IMG/VR virus record: IMGVR_UViG_2563366852_000004
Span: 1 to 37,397 of that record
Direction: 5' to 3' (one strand)
DNA length: 37,397 nt
Source of the DNA: a virus
Lineage: Duplodnaviria > Heunggongvirae > Uroviricota > Caudoviricetes
Each line of letters opens with the position of its first letter. The stretch's first letter is position 1. A program made the translations under genes and the position numbers. A model generated the notes under the pieces. That model made no database searches and was not told the DNA's origin. It saw only the letters and a program-made list of their open reading frames with translations. This document shows, piece by piece, positions 1 to 37,397 of the stretch.

Positions 1-1110
1 TTAAAGACTTCTTCTTGTGCTTAATTTCAAGTTCATCTTTGCCCATGCATTTCTTATTATTTTATTTGCCGGCATCTCAATTAATTTAAATGATATAATA
101 GAGAAAAATATAGAAATACCCAGACAGCAAACTATATAAAATATAACATCACGTACATCATTTTTGTTTGGTTGCATTATTTCCATTAGCTTAGAAATTA
201 TGATCCAGTGGAACATGTAAAATGAGAAGGATGCCTCTCCTAATAGAATTAGATATCTGTTAGATAAAAATTTAGAAATCACCCCGCCATCAAATGCAAA
301 CGCTATTACTATCATAGCCATACATGGGATATAAAGAAGATCATATTTTATATTCATGTACGAAACATAATTTGTTGCTACATATACGGTAAACGCCAAA
401 AAAAACAGAGAGCCAATCTCCATGGCACTACATATCGCAGGTTTTATATTTACTTTTTTAGCAAGAAACACTCTACTGATTAATACACCAATAATAAAAT
501 CGCCAATCCTGAAAAATGGATTTATATAAAACAGCCAGTGTGATGAAATATTAACTGGTGGGTTCAATAAAAAAAATAAATTAACAATAACAATTACCAA
601 AAGAGTACTTGTTAGATATCGTGACTTAAACTTTACAAGAAGACAAAAAGATAAATAAAAAAACATCTCACACGAGATACTCCATGATACGGGGTTAAAA
701 GAAAAATAGTAATCTGAGATAGGGATAAATGATTGAACCAATAGCGCATTATATATTAATGACTCTTTATTTATAGCCTCAAAGTTTTTTGTATAGCCAA
801 ATATAAAAAGGACACATATCAATGATATAATATGAACAGGAAATAATCTCGCGAGTCTGTAAACTATGAAGTCCTTGTTGCTAAATTTACCTTCTTCCAT
901 ATGCTTACTAAAGCTGTAATTAATAATAAATCCGGAAAGAATATAGAAGAAAGTAACCCCTATATAACCATTAAAAAAGTATTTTGCCGCAACATTGAAC
1001 TGCGAGATCGAAGACTGAGACAAAATGCCTAGATGGCTAACAAATACACCAAGAGCCGCAAGCATTCGAAGTGATGTAAGGCTATGAATAATTTTGTTTT
1101 TCTGAGTCAT
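1..1110 (-). CDS. Acyltransferase family 3 integral membrane protein (O-antigen acetylase-like, probable lysogenic conversion gene)
   Basis: 369 aa ORF, ATG at 1108-1110, stop at 1-3. Multi-pass hydrophobic protein whose N-terminus (SLRMLAALGVFVSHLG) is typical of Acyl_transf_3 O-acetyltransferases. Visibly AT-rich; sits next to the tailspike at the prophage end, as oac does in Sf6-type phages. Confidence 0.75.
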   Translation of the reverse strand: MTQKNKIIHSLTSLRMLAALGVFVSHLGILSQSSISQFNVAAKYFFNGYIGVTFFYILSGFIINYSFSKHMEEGKFSNKDFIVYRLARLFPVHIISLICVLFIFGYTKNFEAINKESLIYNALLVQSFIPISDYYFSFNPVSWSISCEMFFYLSFCLLVKFKSRYLTSTLLVIVIVNLFFLLNPPVNISSHWLFYINPFFRIGDFIIGVLISRVFLAKKVNIKPAICSAMEIGSLFFLAFTVYVATNYVSYMNIKYDLLYIPCMAMIVIAFAFDGGVISKFLSNRYLILLGEASFSFYMFHWIIISKLMEIMQPNKNDVRDVIFYIVCCLGISIFFSIISFKLIEMPANKIIRNAWAKMNLKLSTRRSL

Positions 1111-1180
1111 AACACTGCCAATATCATTAATGATCTTGGCAGGTTAGTTTCATCTATGAGCTATGTCAATACTTGTAAAT

Positions 1181-2977
1181 TCAAAACTCCTGAACATCTG
1201 CGTTACCAGAGATGTTCCAGATTGATTTCGGAGACCCATTTACCCCTATCATCCTTACCTTCAACTTAGAACCGCTTGCTCTTGGTACGGTTAAATTTGC
1301 AGCAGATGGATTTATAGCCCAATCTCCACCATTTAATATGACACTCATTTCAACTACGCCACCATTATCAATATCTATTATAGGTGTTTGCATTACCGGG
1401 CTTTGTTGATCAATTGGCAGAAAGCCATTGACAATAATAGATGGTCTGAATGATGGGTTTCCCTGAACGCTAACACGCAGTTGCCCACCCTTAACAAATT
1501 CTGTTGCACAAGTATTCATGACAATGCAATAAGGATTTACAAAATCAAATGCATAGCAAATTGATTCCCCATCCATTGGCGTGCAGTTTTCAGCTGTACA
1601 ATTGGTCATGGTAGTATATTGCATTCCGGACATTCTAAATGACAACTGGTAACCGTTAACCTGAACAAGGCGCATATCCATAGAGGTGCCTATTACTCTT
1701 ATTTGACCATCCCTAAAATCTTCAAATAAAACTCCAGCATATCCTTTCCCGGGATATTGTGGGAAACCTACCATTTCCATTACGCCAGAGAACGGTACAT
1801 AAGAGAAGCAGCCGATATAAGCACATTCAAAAATTGACTGTCTGATAACTGGTGCTGCTGATTTTCCTAAAAACAATCCGTAATAATTTCTATAAGAATC
1901 TACGTTTTCTTGTGTTAAACCAAGCCTTCTAAACATGCAGTTTTCAACTCTACCGTTAACACAAAATGAACTCATTGAGTTATCCGTTAGATCCCATTGC
2001 TTTGGTATAAAAGCACATAATGCATCCACCTGAAGAATTACCTCTCCATTTTTTGTGAGATCTATTTTGTCATTTGTTGTTTTATAAAAAACTGTCGCTT
2101 CAGCCTTTCCATGGCCTCTAATTCCCATATTGTCATAAATTGGGATTGTTTTTGATGTATTTATGTTTCCAGCAGGAGCCTCTAGAATGCATTTGTTTGA
2201 GCGAGCAAAGTTAGTTGCAAGAGTTATGGCTGTCGCATTATCTGTTACTCCGTCAGGTTTCACCCCCCAAAATTGCATGTCGTAAGTGGTAAAATTAAAT
2301 CGTCTCCATACCATCGTTCCAGTTTCTGGCTTGATTACAATTCCACCATCATCAGCCCACGCCTGAATGTTATCAACAGACTCGAAAAAGCCGCCACCAA
2401 GGTGGTTTTCAGCATGTGTAGTGCTAGCTGCTGAGGCTACGTATACAATCTGCCCTGCCTCCTCTGGAACACAGGAGCGAAGCTCTGAAAGATTGAGAAA
2501 GCGGCCAATAGCGTTAAACCCTGTTTTAGCAGTTAATGAATCATGTGTAGCTTTCAAGATCTCCAGCTCAATCTTTACGGTTGTGCCTCCATAACCAACC
2601 AGAGATGCGCCATCAGGGCCAGAAAGCTCAGCCCTTAACTGGTCTGGAGAATATTTCAGTAGATCAGGATAATAGAATTGTTGTGCACCATATGCATCAT
2701 ACACAGCCATGGAGTGATTCTGTACAGTTGCGAACTTGGCGATCTGCCCGTTATATACCGGATATCCAGCAGCGTTGATAACTATTGGCTGCGCCACCTG
2801 AACATGAGAGCCATCTTCTCGTTCCAGATATACAGGGATCTGGTTTTCAGGATTTACCGGGTCAGTGTCAACCTGACCGATATAAATTTTGCCATTAGCT
2901 ACGGCTTTAAAAGAACGCGCCATAGTGAAGAGTTGCGAAGGCATACTCACTACAACATTGGCTGTAATGTCTGTCAT
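1181..2977 (-). CDS. Tailspike protein (P22 gp9-like N-terminal head-binding domain, divergent C-terminal receptor-binding domain)
   Basis: 598 aa. First ~110 aa ([11 protein letters not shown]...[27 protein letters not shown]...DGSHVQ) match the P22 tailspike head-binding domain from memory; the rest is unrelated to P22 gp9. ATG at 2975-2977. Confidence 0.85.
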
Positions 2978-3035
2978 CTAATTTGCTCCAGATGCAAGGA
3001 ATCGCCGCAGCATGGCTACGGTGAATTTTTGGCAT

Positions 3036-3058
3036 AAAAAAACCCAGCCGAAGCTGGG
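3036..3058 (-). terminator. Intrinsic terminator between ejection-protein gene and tailspike gene
   Basis: Minus strand reads CCCAGC-TTCG-GCTGGG followed by TTTTTTT (plus strand aaaaaaacccagccgaagctggg). Confidence 0.6.
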
Positions 3059-3164
3059 TCGTTGCGTTGGTTATCTGTCAGTAGTTATGTACTGAAGGAG
3101 GTAATTCTTATTCTTAAGTCTTATCAGGATTTGGAAACACAGTTATATGCAACAGTAGATAAAA

Positions 3165-5294
3165 CTATTCATATTCATTCATACCGCTTAACGAGGCGAC
3201 AATACCAGCTCTCGACAAGCGATTGAATTCATCGCTACCAATAGCATCGCGTATTGCTTTTACGGCAGCTTTATTTGCCATAAATCTGCGTTCCGCCGCC
3301 ACTAATGCCTCTTTGCTTCCGCCTGCTCTTACTGCTTTAGTGGCTTCCTGAACTGCTTTCTCTATCGCATACCGACCACTACGTGTGGTGGCAATTTTAG
3401 ATACAGCGCCTTTTAACCCGGCGCCAACTAAAGCACCTGCGGCAGCGCCTGCAATGCCCCCTCCTGCTCCACCAACAATGGCACCTGATGTTGAGTTGGC
3501 AATTGCATTTAACACTGTTGATGTGACGTTGGATAAACCGGCATCCAGATCGCGTAGTACATTGGCAGTTCTCCCTGTTCTTTCAATATACTGCTGAGGT
3601 TTCACTGCTGCTCTTGCAAGAGTGCCATATGCATCAGCAATTCTTCCGAGATCTGAGGAATATCTGCTAATGGCTTTTACATTTTGTGGGGTAAGTATCC
3701 CTGCGATATGGTTAATTCCTGCTGCATCAGCTTTGCCACCACGTACACCATGCGAGATAGCATCTTGCAACATTGATGATATAGCAGGAACACGCTCTGA
3801 TTCTGGCAGCGCGCGGATCATAGAATGGAACCCAGCAGGACCATTAAGACCTTTAGCTGACGATGATTGAAGGGATTTTACTCCATTCGTAATCAGTGCA
3901 TCTGTTGCCAAATCACGCCCGAAAACAGACTCTGCACTCTCTTGTGCTGATAACCTCGCTTTAGACAGATCATTAGCTTTCTGCCAGTCATCAAGAAATC
4001 CGCCGTTTTCCGCCATTGTGCGCATATCATCAGTAATTGCCCGGCGTATTTCCCCTGCTCTCCTTGCCGCATTTGCCTCTCCGCTACGCTTATATTTTTG
4101 CTCCGCATCAGCAAATTTCGCTCTCCATGCTTTCATGCCATCAAATGTTACTCCACCTTGATTGTTTGCCTGAACAAACTGTTTCATTTCAGGAGTAAGC
4201 GGTATGCCAGCAGATCGCTCTGCCTGAATAACGGCATTACCATTTAGCATTCTTGCTTTTTGATTTGGCATTGTTGACCGCACGTCATCCCATGCCGCGC
4301 GCTCGGCATCCTTCATCTGATCAAGATTTTGAAGAATCCTTTGTTTTATAGCCGCACTTTTTTCTGATGCCGTTCCAGATGCGGCCCCAAATTCATCAAG
4401 GTTTCGACTTAACTTTGATGATATTTCGTTAAATGCTGCCTGATGGGCGTCCTGAACAATTCCTGGTGTTGATGCCAATGCGCCTTCAGCTTGTGCAATT
4501 CCACGACTTCCAGATCGCATTCCTGGTGTTAATGCGTTTATATCAATTCCAGCAGACTCAGCCGCTTTTGCTACATCTTCGGACACATTAGCGGCCTGAC
4601 TGGCAATTGACTGACGCCCAGCACCTGACTTTGCCATCCTGGAAACATCATTAGCAGAATTCAGTGCTGCACCACCAAGAGCCTGTGAAACCCTTGGCGC
4701 AATAACGCGCCCGACACCTGAAAGAACGCCTTGAGCACCAATATTGATACCACCGTTAATGGCAGCATTTTGTGCAAAGTCGCCCTCCTGATTTGCAGCA
4801 TCAGCAAGAGAACCTGCAATCATGTTTCCTGCGGAACCGATATCTCCAGCGAGCTTTGCTGGCGCTCCAGCAGCTTTTGCCGCTGTGCCAATTGGCAGGA
4901 GATACCCACCAATTGTTTCACCGACTTGCGCGTAAGGGTCTGTAGGTCGATCGACAGGGCGATAAACATCATCCAAAACCTTGGGGCCACCAAGCCCCTG
5001 GCTGATTGCATTAATCAGACTTGCGCCACCCTGCAATACGTCAAATGGTATGTTTACCAGACCACGACCAGCCTGTTCTGCAATTTGCCCTGCACTTTGA
5101 CCACCTGTGAGCCAATCACCAGCTTGTTGCATCAATGATGGTTCTTCACGTGCTGGTTCATTATTGGCCTGATTAACTGTTTGTTGCTGAACAGCCTGAC
5201 CAGCAAAATACTCATCAATGGCGGTGCCAATATCTTCCGTGCTCGTACCATCAGGGAAGGTAAATGTCTTTCCGTTTGCAGTTACTTTCATCAT
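3165..5294 (-). CDS. Ejection/DNA-transfer protein (P22 gp16-like)
   Basis: 709 aa, Ala/Gly-rich, last of three consecutive ejection-protein-like genes in the conserved P22 order 7-20-16 before the tailspike. Call is positional and compositional. Confidence 0.65.
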
Positions 5295-6622
5295 TCCACC
5301 GTAAATTGAATGCCTGATTTTGAGGTATATGATCCGGATTGACTCTGCTGCTGTTGGGTATTTGTCGGTTGTTGGTTATTGCTCTGTTGTTGCGCAGGCT
5401 GCTGAATATCTTCATACAGCTTGGCTTTTCTGGATTGCAATTGCTTAGTTAGTCCGCTGGGGAGAGAATCTCCATAAGTTGAAAGATAATCATCCATTTG
5501 CTGGTTAAACTTTTCGCCTTCAGTATTTGCCATCAGTTTTGAGGTGTTGATTAAGTCCTGGACTTGCTCATTATTCAGCATCTTGCCGTTAGATAATTGG
5601 CTAACATAGTTACCAAGTGTGCCGAATATTCCATCAGTGCGTTTTACCTGCACTTGCTCACCTTCGCGTACCACAGATTGCGGATCCAGCGATTTCATAT
5701 AGTTGAAAATCATTCCCAACTGCGCGGCTGGAGTGTTGCGCTTCCCAAGGGCTTGTAGGTTGTCAGAAGCACTGCGCATTGCAGAATAATTCTTTGAGAA
5801 CCCATTAATATCACTATTCAGATCTCGAACAAGTTTTGGGTCAATCTTTCCGCTTTCCTGTTGTTTCATCCCTAATTCCTGCAACTTCAGGGCTACGTTA
5901 TCATTATGCATTTGTGCCCGCTGAGCCCTGTCTAGTTGAGCGTTTTGGATATTTGCCCATCCTCTCGCGTTCTCCATGTCAGCCTGACGGATGCTTTCAT
6001 CCAATCGCCCTTTCTCAAGTTGGCGACCAACCATCTTATCCTGATAATCCAGCATTTTATCCGGACCAACAGCCCCTAGCGTCATAGTAGTCAGCATGTG
6101 TGATAGCTGCTCTGGATTCTGGATACCTGTCTGAATCATCCAGTCAGCATTCGCACCCACGCGATTTAACCTGTCCTTGTTGTCAGTAATGAATTTACTG
6201 TAGGCTTCCGGTCCCTGAGAAAGAGCGACGTTAGCCCTCATGGCTAAATCGCCCATATCGTTGCGTTGCTGCTCATTAAGACCGGAAAACGCCTGTTGTG
6301 CCTGTGCAACAAACGCTGGATTTTCCTGGGCAAACTTAAATAGTCCCGATGGATCACCAGAAGCCCATGCATCAGCGTGAACCTTATTGAACGCACTAAT
6401 AGCTTTCTGTTGCTGTTCCTGCTTATAAATATCAGCAACTCCAGCCAGACCACGTAACGCGGTCAGACCAACGTTATTTGCGCCTGATCGAGCCAGTTCA
6501 TTGTTTTCGCGGATCAGACCAAGCGTTGCGTTAATGTCGCTTGCCTTTGGCGCATTCTCATTTTGCGCACCGATGCCAGCAAGAAACCCACCAGAATTAA
6601 TACCCTGTTGCCACGTAGCCAT
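5291..6622 (-). CDS. Ejection protein (P22 gp20-like)
   Basis: 443 aa, Gln/Asn-rich; between gp7-like and gp16-like genes; 4-nt overlap with downstream gene. Confidence 0.65.
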
Positions 6623-6632
6623 TGATTAACCC

Positions 6633-7325
6633 TTAAAACAGTGAACCAAGCAGACCAAGACCAGCACCAATACCAGCACCCCACGGAGTTGATAGCTCGA
6701 GAGCACTGGCTATGCCACCACCCAAAAGCGCACCGGATGCAGCACCACTAACCCCCTGCTGCAATGCTGACGGTCGGTTGGCGTTTGCCGCAGCCAGCGC
6801 CGCGCTTTGCTGTGAAATCTGACTCATGTTGTTGGCATATGTTTGCCCGGCGTTTGCCTGCCCCTGAAGAGCGCCAAGACCGATATTTGCCAGGTTGTTG
6901 TAATTGTTCATTTGTCCAGATAGCCATTGCTGACCAAGCGTTGGTGCGATTGTTGCTAACTGATTACTGGTTGCGGTGGAACCCAATCCACCTGTTGCTT
7001 CCGCTGCCGCCAGACTCTGATAGCGAGCCTGACCTGCAAGGTCTTTATACTGCTGAGAGTTGTAATACTGGTTAAGTGCCTGACCTTGCCCCTCCAGAGA
7101 CGATAAGTTTTCGAGGCTGCCGACATACTTATCAGCCAGAGGAGTAAACGGCTTCAGGTTATTCATGATGGTGTTGAACTGCTGATTTTGCAGGTCTGCG
7201 GCATACTTCTGAGCTTCTGCTGCATACTTTGCGCTTTTATCAGAGCTACCACCTTTCCCGCCTTTTTCAGGGCAATAAGGTTCCTCGCCGCGCAGTTTTC
7301 TGCCCAGTTTAAATGCATATAACAT
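6633..7325 (-). CDS. Ejection protein (P22 gp7-like)
   Basis: 230 aa; N-terminus MLYAFKLGRKLRGEEPYCPEKGGKGG followed by a Gln/Ala-rich region and a Gly-rich hydrophobic C-terminus; P22 gp7 is about this size. Confidence 0.65.
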   Translation of the reverse strand: MLYAFKLGRKLRGEEPYCPEKGGKGGSSDKSAKYAAEAQKYAADLQNQQFNTIMNNLKPFTPLADKYVGSLENLSSLEGQGQALNQYYNSQQYKDLAGQARYQSLAAAEATGGLGSTATSNQLATIAPTLGQQWLSGQMNNYNNLANIGLGALQGQANAGQTYANNMSQISQQSAALAAANANRPSALQQGVSGAASGALLGGGIASALELSTPWGAGIGAGLGLLGSLF

Positions 7326-12896: not shown

Positions 12897-12986
12897 TTGT
12901 TCCCCCTGTTTACTCGATGTTCAGCCCATCGGAAGGCAATAGGGTGCCAGGCCTCATAAAGACAGCCATTGCACGTTATGGGTTAA

Positions 12987-15185
12987 TTACTGCTGTGGTT
13001 GTTGCTGAGTTAATTTTTGCAGGATGCTGCTGATGTCCATGCGCTGCGCATGGCCCTGTGCCTGACTTTTCAGGACAAGCTCTGCATCAGCACGGGCATT
13101 ATCTCCTTGCTGTTGCTGGAACTGTCCGAGCAGTTTCAGCGCCTCACGGATATCAGATTTTTGCTGGCTATCGGCAGATGCGAGGATTTTCACAACATTT
13201 GCCGCAGCAACCTGAGCATCCGTCTGTGCCTGGAATGCTTTAACCTGAATGGCTGCCTGTTCGTTCTGCGCTTTCTGCAATTCAGCCTGACCAGCAAGAA
13301 GCTGACCTTGCGCAGCAACCATAGCCGGATCTGGCTGACTGGCCTGTTGTTGTTTCGCCTGCTCAACCATCTGCTGCTCTTCTGGCGTTCTCGGCTTGAT
13401 AACTCCAGACAGAAGCAACTGATTGCGGTTGTATTCTTTAAGGTCGTCCATCCCTTCGCCATCCATATTGTCGAGAATCATCGACGATACAAGGTCGTGC
13501 TTCGGCGTTCCTGGTGGGATAAGTGCCAGCATGGAAAGTAACGACTTAACCGTTGCATCACGGCGAGTAGCGAACGACTGACCGACATCGACAGTCACTT
13601 CATAGTTACCCTGCGAAAGGTCGTTAAGCGCGATAACCTGCCCTGTCTGACGGTCAACCACTTCACCAGTCATCAGCGCCACGTCATCGCTGCCGTCCTC
13701 ATTAACGATGCGCATTGGCGTATCGCTGCCATAGACTTCACGCGCCATAGAAAGCCACACAACGCCAGCGCGACGCATGGATTTAGCCATGTTGTCCATG
13801 TAGATATAGGACTGCGTATCCATCCGGTTAAAGATGCTATCAACGGTATCGGTGGCGACGTTGCTCGGCATGTTCTCAAGCTGCGACGCACCTGTAATTT
13901 GCTGAATAGCCGTTCCGGTGTACTGCAATAGCCCGGCAAGAGCTGGCGGCATTTGTGTCGGAGGTGTATAACTGCTGACCTGAGCCTGCGCAGTAATATC
14001 TCCGTTTTTGTTTTTCAGACTGACCATCGGCAGGAACGCCGGGCGCTTTTTGTTGCGCTCCGCCCAATGAGTGGCAAGAGGACCAGGAATCATGTCAACA
14101 TCAACTACAGGAATGCCATCACCGCCAGCCTGAGTAGCGTTATCTGCAATCATGGAAACCATCAGGTTCTCAAGACGCTGCGCATCCATCGCTTTTGCTG
14201 CGTGGCCTTCGATTCGCTCCTGATTATCAACAAATGAGCGACGCCCATATACCGGGATGAGAGGAATATGTTCGCCCGGAATACGCTTCGGTTCTTCCAG
14301 CCATTCAGCGCCAGACAGAAGACCGCAATAAACGCGGCGCTTCTTCACCGTTCGCTCGCCAATCAGTTCGAATGCACCATCGGTCAGCTCGTCGACAATA
14401 TCTTTGATTTGCTCTTCATCATAGATTGCCGTTTCTCCGCTGACAGGGTTACGCCATGCTGTGAGCTTCACCTTCTCTATGCGGACTTCGTAGTAACGTC
14501 CAACATAGATGGCATCTGGCGTTGACCAGTCATATTGAGTGCCAGTGTCATCACGAGAAAGGCTTGCCGCGATGGAATCAGGGTATTCAGCCTCGAACGC
14601 TTTAGGCGTCATGGAGAACATTTCCATAGCCCACATAGCATCAGAGCGGTCATATTGCTTGCTGTCCTGATCGAAGAAGACGCATGTCGCTGGGTCGTAA
14701 ACAGGAAGAAGGCTGATGCGTCGCTGCTCGTTACTCGGATCCATTTCATCTTCGTAATCAGCACACATGCGGAAACAACCGAATCCGCCCGTTACAGCAT
14801 CATCAAATGCGTTATCACACGCTTCGCCACCGGATGTTTCCTGATAATCAGCGCGGAATTTGCCGTTCATCTTTTCGGCTAACGCTTCCGATGCCTTGTC
14901 ATCCTTCGGCCTGAATTTAACGCTGATGCGATTCTGCCGATACTCGCCAATGATGCGATCACATTCACGGGCAATCTTATTTAGTTCAAAGCGCGGATAA
15001 TGCTCAAACCTGCCTTCATCAAATGAGTAACCAGCGTTTGTGCTGCCTTCCCACTGTGCGCCGGATACCCGGACGAAACGTTGAGCCTCAATAATCTGCT
15101 CACGCATATCCTGCGTTGCTGACCAGGCATTATCAAAGTTGCACAGCACCTTGCGATGCCAGTCAGTCATCTTTTTTTCTGCCAT
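12987..15185 (-). CDS. Portal protein (P22 gp1-like)
   Basis: 732 aa; motifs GEHIPLIPVYG, PRTPEEQQMVEQAKQQQASQPDPAMVAAQGQLLAGQAELQKAQN and ARADAELVLKS...RMDISSILQ match the P22 portal from memory, including the long C-terminal helical barrel region. Confidence 0.9.
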   Translation of the reverse strand: MAEKKMTDWHRKVLCNFDNAWSATQDMREQIIEAQRFVRVSGAQWEGSTNAGYSFDEGRFEHYPRFELNKIARECDRIIGEYRQNRISVKFRPKDDKASEALAEKMNGKFRADYQETSGGEACDNAFDDAVTGGFGCFRMCADYEDEMDPSNEQRRISLLPVYDPATCVFFDQDSKQYDRSDAMWAMEMFSMTPKAFEAEYPDSIAASLSRDDTGTQYDWSTPDAIYVGRYYEVRIEKVKLTAWRNPVSGETAIYDEEQIKDIVDELTDGAFELIGERTVKKRRVYCGLLSGAEWLEEPKRIPGEHIPLIPVYGRRSFVDNQERIEGHAAKAMDAQRLENLMVSMIADNATQAGGDGIPVVDVDMIPGPLATHWAERNKKRPAFLPMVSLKNKNGDITAQAQVSSYTPPTQMPPALAGLLQYTGTAIQQITGASQLENMPSNVATDTVDSIFNRMDTQSYIYMDNMAKSMRRAGVVWLSMAREVYGSDTPMRIVNEDGSDDVALMTGEVVDRQTGQVIALNDLSQGNYEVTVDVGQSFATRRDATVKSLLSMLALIPPGTPKHDLVSSMILDNMDGEGMDDLKEYNRNQLLLSGVIKPRTPEEQQMVEQAKQQQASQPDPAMVAAQGQLLAGQAELQKAQNEQAAIQVKAFQAQTDAQVAAANVVKILASADSQQKSDIREALKLLGQFQQQQGDNARADAELVLKSQAQGHAQRMDISSILQKLTQQQPQQ

Positions 15186-15186
15186 A

Positions 15187-16602
15187 TCAACCTACACCAC
15201 AAGGAATTGAGTAACTGGAATAGTCGGGTTGCGCAGCCGACTCCGGGCAATGCATACACATCATCAGCGCATCAGCCAGGTTAGGAGATGGAATACCGAG
15301 CTTCTGCTTCATTTCGACCTTAGTCATAAGCTCCAGCTTCCCGTTGTTATTGAATTTGCGCTGAATCTGCGTCAGTTCTGCAAACAGCTTCTCCAGCATC
15401 TTCTCGCCTATCGCTTCTTTGTCGAAACTCAGCATGTCGTCGGGGTCTGCATACTCACCGTGGACAACCGCCCGATATGTCAGATACAGCCTGTCAGCCA
15501 GCGCGTAATAGAATTGCGCTCGCTTATTACGGAACACATCGCCAATAGTGCGAACGTTGTCGCCCTGCACGACTTCATCAGCCCATGCTCCGGCCTGATA
15601 TGGTGCATCTTCATCGAATGGCGATTCGCTGCCCTTGAACATCGTGGCGGTGATTTTCTTGCCGGAGAACGCTTCCGTTGTCTGTCTGCGTAGCCCGGCA
15701 CCAACACCATCACCATCCCACAGGTAATGGTCAGCGCCGTCTTCAATCGCCAGCGAAGTAGCCCAGTCAGCACCCTCGTTGATGTCCATCAGCAGACCTT
15801 CGGCAATGCGCTTAACTACCGAACCGTGACGCGATGCATAACCTTTAGCATCTGGTCCTGTATCTGACGGGTCATGCGCAGAGACAACAGCGCCTTTCGC
15901 TTTCCATCCGAGTTTCTTGTGCGCATCGGTAGCAGCTTCAAGCCATTCACGTTTGATGATTGCCATATCACTTGCGCTCACTGGCTCACCAAGCCAGATG
16001 TGACGATACAGTGTCGGGTTTCTGCGTTTACACTCTTCCATCTCCAGACGGAGAACTTCAGGAAAGTGCGGGTTGTCGGTGTAGTTCACCGTCAGCAGGC
16101 AAATATCATCGGGAGGATTTACAACGAATCGCTGATAGGTATCGTCGAGTATGTTCTTCGGGTTAAAGCTCACCCATATTTCAGAGAACGGCTTGCGGAT
16201 GGTTGGTATCAGGATATCCCATGATTCCTTCGTTACCGCTTCCGCTTCCTCCACCCAGCAGATATCAATGCCTTCGAGCGATTTAATCTTCGTCGGGTTG
16301 TTTTTGATGCCGTAGAACATGAACTCAGCATTCGTTCCGAGATGACGAATCATGGAACGCTGAATTTCAAACTCAGCCGTATACCCTTCACGCTCTATGG
16401 TGTCTTCAAGCAGCCGGATTACCGAATCGCTGATACTGTTTTGCAGTTCACGAGCGCAGAGAATACGCACTGGCTGCCGACGCGCCGCTTCAACAAGCAG
16501 CCTCGCAATTGCCCATGACTTACCGCTACCTCGACCGCCTTTGGCGACTTTGTAGCGATGCGCCTCAATGAACGGTTCAAAGATAGGATTAATCGAGGTC
16601 AT
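15187..16602 (-). CDS. Terminase large subunit
   Basis: 471 aa; Walker A-like KVAKGGRGSGKSWA near the N-terminus; directly upstream of the portal gene; 4-nt overlap with TerS. Confidence 0.9.
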   Translation of the reverse strand: MTSINPIFEPFIEAHRYKVAKGGRGSGKSWAIARLLVEAARRQPVRILCARELQNSISDSVIRLLEDTIEREGYTAEFEIQRSMIRHLGTNAEFMFYGIKNNPTKIKSLEGIDICWVEEAEAVTKESWDILIPTIRKPFSEIWVSFNPKNILDDTYQRFVVNPPDDICLLTVNYTDNPHFPEVLRLEMEECKRRNPTLYRHIWLGEPVSASDMAIIKREWLEAATDAHKKLGWKAKGAVVSAHDPSDTGPDAKGYASRHGSVVKRIAEGLLMDINEGADWATSLAIEDGADHYLWDGDGVGAGLRRQTTEAFSGKKITATMFKGSESPFDEDAPYQAGAWADEVVQGDNVRTIGDVFRNKRAQFYYALADRLYLTYRAVVHGEYADPDDMLSFDKEAIGEKMLEKLFAELTQIQRKFNNNGKLELMTKVEMKQKLGIPSPNLADALMMCMHCPESAAQPDYSSYSIPCGVG

Positions 16603-36127: not shown

Positions 36128-36346
36128 ATGTACTTGACACTTCAGGAGTGGAACGCACGCCAGCGACGCCCAAGAAGCCTTGAAACAGTTCGTCGATGGG
36201 TGCGCGAATGCAGGATATTCCCTCCTCCGGTTAAGGATGGAAGAGAGTATCTGTTCCACGAGTCAGCGGTAAAGGTTGACTTAAATCGACCAGTAACAGG
36301 TAGCCTTTTGAAGAGGATCAGAAATGGGAAGAAGGCGAAGTCATGA
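36128..36346 (+). CDS. xis: Excisionase Xis
   Basis: 72 aa; MYLTLQEWNARQRRPRSLETVRRWVRECRIFPPPVKDGREYLFHESAVKVDLNRP... is essentially identical to lambda Xis as remembered. Confidence 0.9.
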   Translation: MYLTLQEWNARQRRPRSLETVRRWVRECRIFPPPVKDGREYLFHESAVKVDLNRPVTGSLLKRIRNGKKAKS

Positions 36347-37397
36347 GCGCCGGGATTTACCCCCTAACCTTTATATAAGAAACAATGGATATTACTGCTA
36401 CAGGGACCCAAGGACGGGTAAAGAGTTCGGATTAGGCCGAGACAGACGCATAGCAATCACTGAAGCTATACAGGCCAATATTGAGTTGCTATCCGGGAAC
36501 AGGCGTGAGTCACTGATAGACAGAATTAAAGGCGCTGACGCAATCACTCTTCATGCGTGGCTTGACCGATATGAAACAATCCTCAGCGAGAGGGGTATCA
36601 GGCCGAAAACTCTACTCGACTACGCCAGCAAAATCAGGGCAATCCGAAGAAAATTGCCGGACAAACCGCTCGCTGACATATCAACGAAAGAGGTGGCAGC
36701 AATGCTAAACACCTACGTAGCAGAAGGTAAAGCGGCTTCCGCAAAATTAATCAGGTCAACCCTTGTTGACGTTTTTCGTGAGGCAATAGCCGAGGGGCAT
36801 GTAGCAACGAATCCGGTAACAGCAACCCGCACAGCAAAGTCAGAAGTAAGGCGCTCAAGGCTGACAGCTAATGAGTATGTCGAGATTTACCATGCAGCCG
36901 AACCTCTCCCAATCTGGCTAAGACTGGCGATGGATTTGGCTGTCGTTACAGGGCAGAGAGTCGGCGATTTGTGCAGAATGAAATGGTCAGACATAAACGA
37001 CAACTATCTTCACATTGAACAGGGTAAAACAGGGGCTAAGCTCGCCATTCCGCTGACGCTAAGGATTGACGCGCTCAATATCTCATTGGCTGATACACTA
37101 CAGAAATGCAGGAAGGCCAGCGGCAGTGAAACAATAATTGCATCAACGCATCACGAACCACTTTCCCCGAAAACAGTATCGAAGTATTTTACAAAGGCGA
37201 GAAATGCATCTGGGCTCTCATTTGATGGAGACCCGCCAACATTCCATGAACTGCGTAGCCTGTCGGCGAGGCTATACCGGAACCAGATTGGCGATAAGTT
37301 TGCTCAACGTCTTCTCGGGCATAAATCAGATTCAATGGCAGCGCGGTATAGGGACAGCCGTGGACGGGAATGGGACAAAATTGAAATCGACAAATGA
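36324..37397 (+). CDS. int: Tyrosine integrase (lambda Int family)
   Basis: 357 aa; N-terminus MGRRRSHERRDLPPNLYIRNNGYYCYRDPRTGKEFGLGRDRRIAITEAIQANIEL and catalytic region (HELRSL...LLGHKSD..A..YRD.RGREWDKIEI) match lambda Int; overlaps xis by 23 nt as in lambda; stop coincides with the window end. Confidence 0.95.
   Translation: MGRRRSHERRDLPPNLYIRNNGYYCYRDPRTGKEFGLGRDRRIAITEAIQANIELLSGNRRESLIDRIKGADAITLHAWLDRYETILSERGIRPKTLLDYASKIRAIRRKLPDKPLADISTKEVAAMLNTYVAEGKAASAKLIRSTLVDVFREAIAEGHVATNPVTATRTAKSEVRRSRLTANEYVEIYHAAEPLPIWLRLAMDLAVVTGQRVGDLCRMKWSDINDNYLHIEQGKTGAKLAIPLTLRIDALNISLADTLQKCRKASGSETIIASTHHEPLSPKTVSKYFTKARNASGLSFDGDPPTFHELRSLSARLYRNQIGDKFAQRLLGHKSDSMAARYRDSRGREWDKIEIDK

Follow-up and report, generated by a model that had tools for sequence, protein, structure and literature searches.

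We examined a 37,397-nt stretch of tailed-phage DNA (positions 1 to 37,397 of IMG/VR record IMGVR_UViG_2563366852_000004; hereafter the window), focusing on its first 2977 nt, where a tailspike gene and a membrane acyltransferase gene lie side by side on the minus strand. The tailspike open reading frame (ORF; 1181-2977) encodes 598 amino acids (aa). It is separated by a 70-bp leader (1111-1180, minus strand) from a 369-aa acyltransferase gene (1-1110, ATG at 1110-1108, stop codon at 1-3), which we refer to as oac.

Homology and a predicted structure indicate that the tailspike is a mosaic of three parts, in which a P22/Sf6 anchor is joined through a helical neck to a beta-helix depolymerase domain. 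The head-binding domain that anchors the protein to the particle (aa 1-115; 2633-2977, minus strand) is of the P22/Sf6 type: residues 1-113 fit the Pfam domain Head_binding (PF09008; E = 6e-63), and PDB sequence matches to Sf6 gp14 (7sg7, E = 5e-58) and P22 gp9 (2xc1, E = 1e-47) are confined to aa 1-118. As neither the P22 nor the Sf6 tailspike is matched beyond aa ~118, the C-terminus is unrelated to theirs in sequence; it likewise differs from the tailspikes of HK620, CUS-3 and epsilon34. The helical neck or linker that follows (aa ~116-170; 2468-2632, minus strand) is delimited by breaks in similarity and by helices in an AlphaFold2 (AF2) model (111-118, 123-126, 134-149, 154-157 and 163-167), and it marks where anchor and receptor-binding domain have recombined. 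The remainder (aa ~171-598; 1181-2467, minus strand) is assigned by homology and the AF2 model to a receptor-binding, catalytic beta-helix. Nucleotide similarity is partitioned in the same manner. Similarity to P22-like phages (epsilon34, CUS-3, HK620 and others) covers window positions ~2631-3125, with its tailspike-side end near 2631-2651, and similarity to phage TL-2011b covers 196-2531. Tailspike aa 110-598 align with aa 209-697 of TL-2011b gp48, with 95% aa identity over aa 150-598. Within this alignment aa 151-560 (nt 2527-1298) form a near-identical block, while the neck (aa 110-150) and the final ~40 residues are clearly more diverged, and a recent exchange of the aa 151-560 core with Uetakevirus TL-2011b-like phages is the best explanation for this pattern.

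The AF2 model, built with 42 homologues, is a parallel beta-helix with a predicted local distance difference test score (pLDDT) above 90 for aa 240-598. Its top PDB matches in Foldseek are phage polysaccharide depolymerases, namely Acinetobacter Belisarius gp86 (24qi, E = 4e-17), AS12 gp42 (6eu4), the Klebsiella K2 depolymerases and CBA120 TSP2. In the tailspike of phage vB_EcoP_PAS7 (PAS7), clusters of acidic residues have been proposed as catalytic (PMC11522302), and these clusters are conserved in the window tailspike as D282, E293, E384 and E463, E493, D523. Of these residues, E384, E463 and E493 do not vary across the 42 aligned sequences. We rejected an esterase or deacetylase tailspike of the G7C type, as the domain is a beta-helix with conserved acidic clusters and not an SGNH fold.

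The product of oac is a membrane O-acyltransferase of the acyltransferase-3 (AT3) family. Pfam Acyl_transf_3 (PF01757) is its sole Pfam domain (E = 1.7e-23; score 83.6 bits, gathering cut-off 31), and PHROG 3333, 'O-acetyltransferase', matches it with E = 5e-72. The protein has ten hydrophobic segments, with neither an eleventh helix nor an SGNH domain, making it an AT3-only enzyme. A PDB sequence search with the acyltransferase gave no match. The AF2 model is all-helical (pLDDT 86.6, predicted template modelling score 0.85), and its only meaningful PDB fold match, a distant one, is human HGSNAT, an acetyl-CoA transmembrane acetyltransferase (probability 0.99). A recent study reportedly unites HGSNAT with AT3 proteins in one superfamily. 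Mutagenesis of OafA and Oac has shown three motifs to be important: R/K-X10-H in transmembrane helix (TMH) 1, an FFxISG-type motif in TMH2 and RXXR in the loop between helices 2 and 3 (PMC7448272). The window protein has R15-X10-H26, F55..S59-G60 and R85-xx-R88, all of which are fully conserved when it is aligned with Oac of Sf6 and Oac of phiV10; its TMH2 motif, F54-F55-Y-I-L-S59-G60, is one residue longer than FFxISG. GC content is 0.30-0.31 across the acyltransferase (0.308), 0.41 in the tailspike receptor-binding domain and 0.49 in the adjacent 10 kb of phage genes. Sequence features thus support an intact AT3-only enzyme that is phage-borne, horizontally exchanged and situated where lysogenic-conversion genes are found.

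An earlier reading of the window from sequence only had described the outline of this, and its description held: a P22-type head-binding N-terminus joined to an unrelated C-terminal domain, with a strongly AT-rich acyltransferase-3 gene about 70 bp (in fact exactly 70 bp) downstream. The structure prediction and homology search that it had proposed for the tailspike C-terminus yielded the depolymerase fold and the TL-2011b relationship given above, and the C-terminus does not match a specificity common to all relatives.

The leader carries signals of its own. A promoter-like element consists of TTGACA (1169-1164), a 17-nt spacer and TAACCT (1146-1141), and an inverted repeat, CTGCCAAGATCATT / AATGATATTGGCAG (1142-1115), ends 4 nt upstream of the ATG. 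The -35 and -10 boxes and the CTGCC...GGCAG arms are kept in 10 contexts from 8 genera, two of these contexts being non-phage. The sequence between the arms varies, as does its length (13-23 nt), and this variation speaks against an operator with fixed spacing. A generic promoter scan did not list the leader promoter because its -10 box matches at only 3/6 positions, and we found no terminator between the tailspike gene and oac. RNAalifold on nine leaders predicted only 6 pairs, one with compensatory changes, such that covariation neither establishes an RNA hairpin nor counts it out. Expression of oac independently, as a moron, would be in keeping with the conserved promoter-like element. More speculatively, a CTGCC-N13-23-GGCAG hairpin, which would span the -10 box and the ribosome-binding position, might form only in late transcripts that read through from the tailspike gene; it could then silence oac translation during lytic growth, while transcripts from oac's own promoter would stay translatable in the lysogen.

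Position 1 of the window is the final base of the acyltransferase stop codon, and the lambda-type integrase gene at the far end (36324-37397) also finishes exactly on its stop codon (37395-37397). The window looks like a gene-boundary cut by a prophage caller, with ~3.3 kb of prophage, comprising gtrCBA and an attachment arm, left outside. By exact protein-sequence lookup we recovered source contigs (L012, L013 and L007; loci are cited by L number) that are 100% identical to window positions 1-3300; assemblies with the exact module are indexed in 102 blocks of the collection. Directly beyond the acyltransferase these contigs have a bidirectional terminator, GAGGCGGttttCCGCCTC, followed by gtrC, gtrB, gtrA, integrase (Int) arm-type sites and host DNA. 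The gtrC-gtrB-gtrA genes are convergent with the acyltransferase and form one operon, in which Pfam matches across L004-L013 identify gtrA (PF04138), gtrB (PF00535) and serotype-specific gtrC (PF14264). GtrC is 490 aa long and matches PHROG 4829, 'GtrC-like', with E = 1e-86; among sequenced phages we found no GtrC more than 31% identical to this E. coli protein of the source contigs. The 440-bp arm after gtrA holds two lambda-type Int arm sites, CAGTCACTAT and a near-copy, CAGGTCACTAAT, in inverted orientation. In L012, oac ends at 12977, gtrCBA occupies 13061-15808, the arm sites lie at 16117 and 16147, and homology to E. coli K-12 picks up at 16253, ~3.27 kb past the acyltransferase stop codon; the integration site there is the ibsA/sibA toxin-antitoxin locus, adjoining yegL. 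Prophages integrated at argW (L004-L006 and L009-L011) carry a 100% identical acyltransferase with the same tailspike and gtrCBA, and in these the acyltransferase lies between the tailspike gene and intS.

Because gtrCBA and Int arm-type sites precede host DNA in the source genomes, the acyltransferase lies within the attachment boundaries of the prophage. The sequence-only reading had placed the tailspike-acyltransferase pair at the prophage end, which is incorrect given the ~3.27 kb that separates the pair from the host junction. Its suggestion of an exchanged specificity and conversion cassette survives in part: the mosaic tailspike and the phage-borne, AT-rich membrane enzyme are there, but the module is larger than two genes and consists of the tailspike, oac and gtrCBA.

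The same reading had held that the host polysaccharide could not be deduced, which proved too pessimistic, as homology and host association point strongly to E. coli O103. Among the E. coli phages of the phage collection, this receptor-binding domain occurs only in TL-2011b (host O103:H25; 95% identity) and in the two lytic phages PAS7 (isolated on an O103 strain; 50.5%) and Ro103C3lw (host O103; 43.6%). An O103 subtype of receptor-binding protein (RBP) has already been defined, and Uetakevirus and Lederbergvirus prophage RBPs have been recovered from O103 strains (PMC10408124; PMC11522302). An RBP belongs to the subtype when its receptor-binding domain shares 30% aa identity or more with that of an RBP already assigned to O103 (PMC10408124); by this measure the window domain, at 44-95%, belongs to it. 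Eight complete E. coli genomes among 5426 carry the receptor-binding domain or its 3' remnant. One of these carriers, GPEC349-628, has wzx and wzy annotated as 'O103 family', and a wzx-wzy segment of this O103 type occurs in 32/5426 of the complete genomes, including 6/8 of the carriers (Fisher p = 7e-13). The two non-O103 carriers are a single clone, whose prophage is riddled with insertion sequences (IS) and has an interrupted tailspike gene. Taken together, this homology and host association strongly favour the E. coli O103 O-antigen as the tailspike receptor. As a separate observation, two O103 strains, E. coli APEC20/16 and S56, share only window positions ~2235-3125 (tailspike aa 1-~247), with 92-94% nucleotide identity. 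Past this stretch the similarity is lost, and O103 hosts may thus have a second receptor-binding variant that is more distant (compare P0190, at 70% identity).

The tailspike domain and oac travel together. In a sensitive nucleotide search of the 5426 complete E. coli genomes, the oac subfamily occurred in exactly eight, the same eight that carry the receptor-binding domain. This tailspike family is paired with oac in Escherichia, Cronobacter, Yersinia, Proteus and Morganella, in prophages that are P22-like, Uetakevirus-like or tape-measure-encoding. Relative to the window proteins, the receptor-binding domain and Oac are respectively 82% and 69% identical in a Uetakevirus-like prophage of Cronobacter, 72% and 58% in a P22-like prophage of Yersinia aldovae, and 56% and 54% in tape-measure-encoding prophages of both Proteus mirabilis and Morganella. 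The long-tailed P. mirabilis prophage (L020) has the full tailspike-oac-gtrC-gtrB-gtrA order, with a GtrC 66% identical to that of the source contigs. In TL-2011b and one Cronobacter prophage, oac sits between the tailspike and the lysis genes. One exception is another arrangement in Cronobacter, a prophage with the same tailspike family and gtrCBA but without oac, in which GtrC is only 25% identical. When we scanned species-representative genomes with an oac profile, nearly all matches were distant AT3 proteins (27-37% identical) of Bacteroidota, Firmicutes and other groups. They had neither this tailspike family nor a GtrC nearby and are unusable for linkage statistics; the single close match (L028, 66%) lies among flagellar genes.

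Within E. coli, identity breaks sharply between the two genes. Between the window and GPEC349-628 (L003), nucleotide identity is 99-100% over positions 1400-2600 and only 66-76% over 52-1250, and the same break is seen against TL-2011b. Across the comparisons with L003, L001 and L021, the drop falls at the 3' end of the tailspike gene. Receptor-binding domains that are 95-97.5% identical are followed by oac in three allelic forms, the window, L021 and TL-2011b types (aa identity 100, 79.6 and ~64%), and among the loci examined gtrCBA accompanies only the window allele. Several decayed prophages (33-6, 58-3 and WP8-S18-CRE-02) have a truncated or interrupted tailspike gene and an intact oac. 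In E. coli 33-6 (L002, integrated at argW) the tailspike is cut to its last ~147 aa, with oac, gtrABC and intS intact, and in WP8-S18-CRE-02 (L108) it is interrupted by IS3. This retention of oac hints at a benefit to the host. In one 714-aa protein from a Logan contig (P0189), the reading frame of a tailspike of this family continues into the final third of an AT3 domain (aa 551-682); as no more than that third of the domain is present, we discounted it as a real tailspike-oac fusion, and it is probably a deletion remnant.

Characterized and sequenced phages provide several points of comparison. TL-2011b (Uetakevirus, host O103:H25), whose gp48 and gp49 are both known from sequence alone, shares with the window the gene order, the orientation, the intergenic leader, the 95% identical receptor-binding domain and the oac subfamily. 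It differs in that its 697-aa tailspike has a Uetakevirus N-terminus in place of the P22 head-binding domain, its oac product (gp49), though the nearest sequenced phage protein to Oac, is only 63.6% identical, and lysis genes follow oac, with no gtrABC. The O157 phage phiV10 is likewise a temperate podovirus in which an O-antigen-specific tailspike gene is directly followed by that of an AT3-only O-acetyltransferase, and its record annotates oac as acetylating the O157 antigen and conferring superinfection immunity. Unlike in the window, however, the phiV10 oac is convergent with the tailspike gene, its product is 21% identical, its target is O157 and the phage backbone is another one. Sf6 is P22-like, has the same head-binding domain (E = 5e-58), and places oac between the gene 14 tailspike and the integration module; its Oac is also AT3-only, with R-X10-H, F..SG and RXXR. 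Here too oac is convergent and its product 21% identical, while the tailspike is an endorhamnosidase for the Shigella flexneri O-antigen and there is no gtr operon. P22 shares the backbone and a set of conversion genes between the tailspike (gene 9) and the attachment site, and its gtrABC has a counterpart in the window's real context, but it lacks oac, its GtrC is only 31% identical and its target is Salmonella O:4/O:12. Kapi1, a close relative in backbone, has an uncharacterized acyltransferase between tailspike and integrase. The studies of O103 RBPs include TL-2011b, Ro103C3lw, PAS7 and a Lederbergvirus prophage RBP; in their accessible portions they treat the RBP alone and do not link it to oac or gtr (PMC10408124; PMC11522302).

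Given these comparisons, we consider it probable that the window encodes an O103-specific depolymerase tailspike together with lysogenic-conversion genes for O-acetylation and glucosylation, in a P22-like (Lederbergvirus-type) E. coli prophage. The tailspike would bind and cleave the E. coli O103 O-antigen, allowing the virion to reach the outer membrane. In the lysogen, oac would be transcribed from its own conserved sigma-70-like promoter, and Oac would take acetyl groups from cytoplasmic acetyl-CoA and O-acetylate the O103 repeat unit on the periplasmic side, while the serotype-specific GtrC would add a glucose branch. Both modifications would be expected to alter the epitope recognized by the tailspike family, such that the lysogen and the debris of lysed cells would no longer adsorb the phage itself or its O103-specific relatives, and antigenicity would change. 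That oac and gtr block superinfection is inferred by analogy with the systems above.

Several points weigh against this account. The O103 assignment is drawn from related phages and from complete genomes that carry the domain, rather than from the window's own host. The published O103 structure, to our knowledge, has neither an O-acetyl group nor a glucose branch. Identity of Oac to its Sf6 and phiV10 counterparts is only 21%, and a tblastn search of the phage collection found no characterized relative. When the Kapi1 acyltransferase was over-expressed, the lipopolysaccharide (LPS) profile was unchanged. Finally, two close oac homologues lie outside any prophage or tailspike context, in an Aeromonas island (L023) and in an Enterobacteriaceae metagenome-assembled genome (L028), and the enzyme is therefore not tied to phage. 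The L028 homologue (4860-7114; 66% identical) has the same leader and adjoins fliE/fliF/fliG; part of another acyltransferase gene comes next, and the surrounding 5 kb lack phage genes.

An alternative is that the acyltransferase acts on another envelope glycan, such as enterobacterial common antigen, colanic acid, an O-antigen capsule or peptidoglycan, or was selected for immune evasion or fitness, with the site next to the tailspike being a mere moron slot. AT3 proteins act on many different carbohydrates (PMC7448272), the non-phage homologues and the Kapi1 result are in keeping with such a role, and the intact oac genes behind destroyed tailspikes suggest a host benefit. We nevertheless hold this explanation to be unlikely, since the oac subfamily and the tailspike domain co-occur 8/8 among the 5426 E. 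coli genomes, the linkage persists over three phage architectures in five genera even as the two proteins drift apart to ~54-56%, and oac comes with gtrABC, a system dedicated to modifying the O-antigen. A second proposal, that the tailspike and oac are independent mosaic pieces that happen to be neighbors without functional coupling, could draw on the sharp identity break between the two genes, on the three alleles behind one receptor-binding domain and on the Cronobacter prophage that has the tailspike family and gtrCBA without oac. It fares worse still: all three alleles belong to one subfamily, no unrelated gene takes the place of oac in E. coli, and the pairing recurs far beyond the shared ancestry of one phage lineage, making chance adjacency an improbable account. 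As for the acyltransferase being a host chromosomal gene just outside the prophage, its position at the window edge and its low GC content, reminiscent of host islands, may invite that view, but the flanking sequence refutes it. Phage gtrCBA and Int arm-type sites come before the host DNA, the argW relatives have oac between the tailspike and intS, and in TL-2011b and a Cronobacter prophage the gene lies between tailspike and lysis genes, leaving next to no probability for a host gene.

If the preferred reading, an O103-specific tailspike with O-antigen-modifying conversion genes, is extended across the linked loci, the tailspike domain, oac and gtrCBA may represent a long-lived 'recognise and then disguise' cassette that moves between podovirus-like and long-tailed prophages and between genera, with an arms race among oac alleles and hairpin silencing of oac. 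We offer this combined picture tentatively, as more doubtful than not. Cassette order and orientation are kept between E. coli and Proteus, at 56% identity for the receptor-binding domain, 54% for Oac and 66% for GtrC. In E. coli O103 the receptor-binding domain is nearly fixed and the oac allele has been swapped repeatedly (100, 80 and 64%), a pattern that an arms race over the choice of hydroxyl for acetylation could explain. As far as we could find, the oac subfamily with its three alleles, the occurrence of oac with gtrABC behind an O103 tailspike and the conservation of the three-part cassette in Proteus are undescribed, while the tailspike subtype itself was already known (PMC10408124; PMC11522302).

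O103 is one of the main non-O157 serogroups of Shiga-toxin-producing E. coli, and O103-specific tailspikes are under development as tools for its detection and biocontrol. Should such prophages acetylate and glucosylate the O103 antigen, O103 phages and tailspike reagents would miss some O103 strains, whose reactions with typing sera or vaccines could also be atypical. In the three oac alleles and the gtrC that travels with them there are defined genes for testing this. Conceptually, the locus would be one more example of the established phiV10, Sf6 and P22 paradigm.

The remainder of the window is a P22-like prophage, with P22 coat, portal and terminase genes, lambda-type O/P replication genes and an S24 repressor. 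Rfam and ARAGORN searches over the whole window gave no matches. The tailspike is the last gene of a P22-type late operon, after the gp7/gp20/gp16 ejection-protein genes (ORFs 3165-7325), and loci identical to the window have Pfam matches to P22_gp7, Inj_translocase and Phage_P22_gp16. Between the tailspike gene and the gp16-type DNA transfer protein ORF, which begins at 3165, lies a spacer (2978-3164, minus strand) that contains a remnant of the 3' end of ant and an intrinsic terminator (3060-3041); similarity to epsilon34, CUS-3 and HK620 extends through it to 3125, across features annotated as Ant and terminator. The immI region (mnt/arc/ant) is otherwise missing from the window, while the GPEC349-628 relative (L003) retains ant, arc and mnt.

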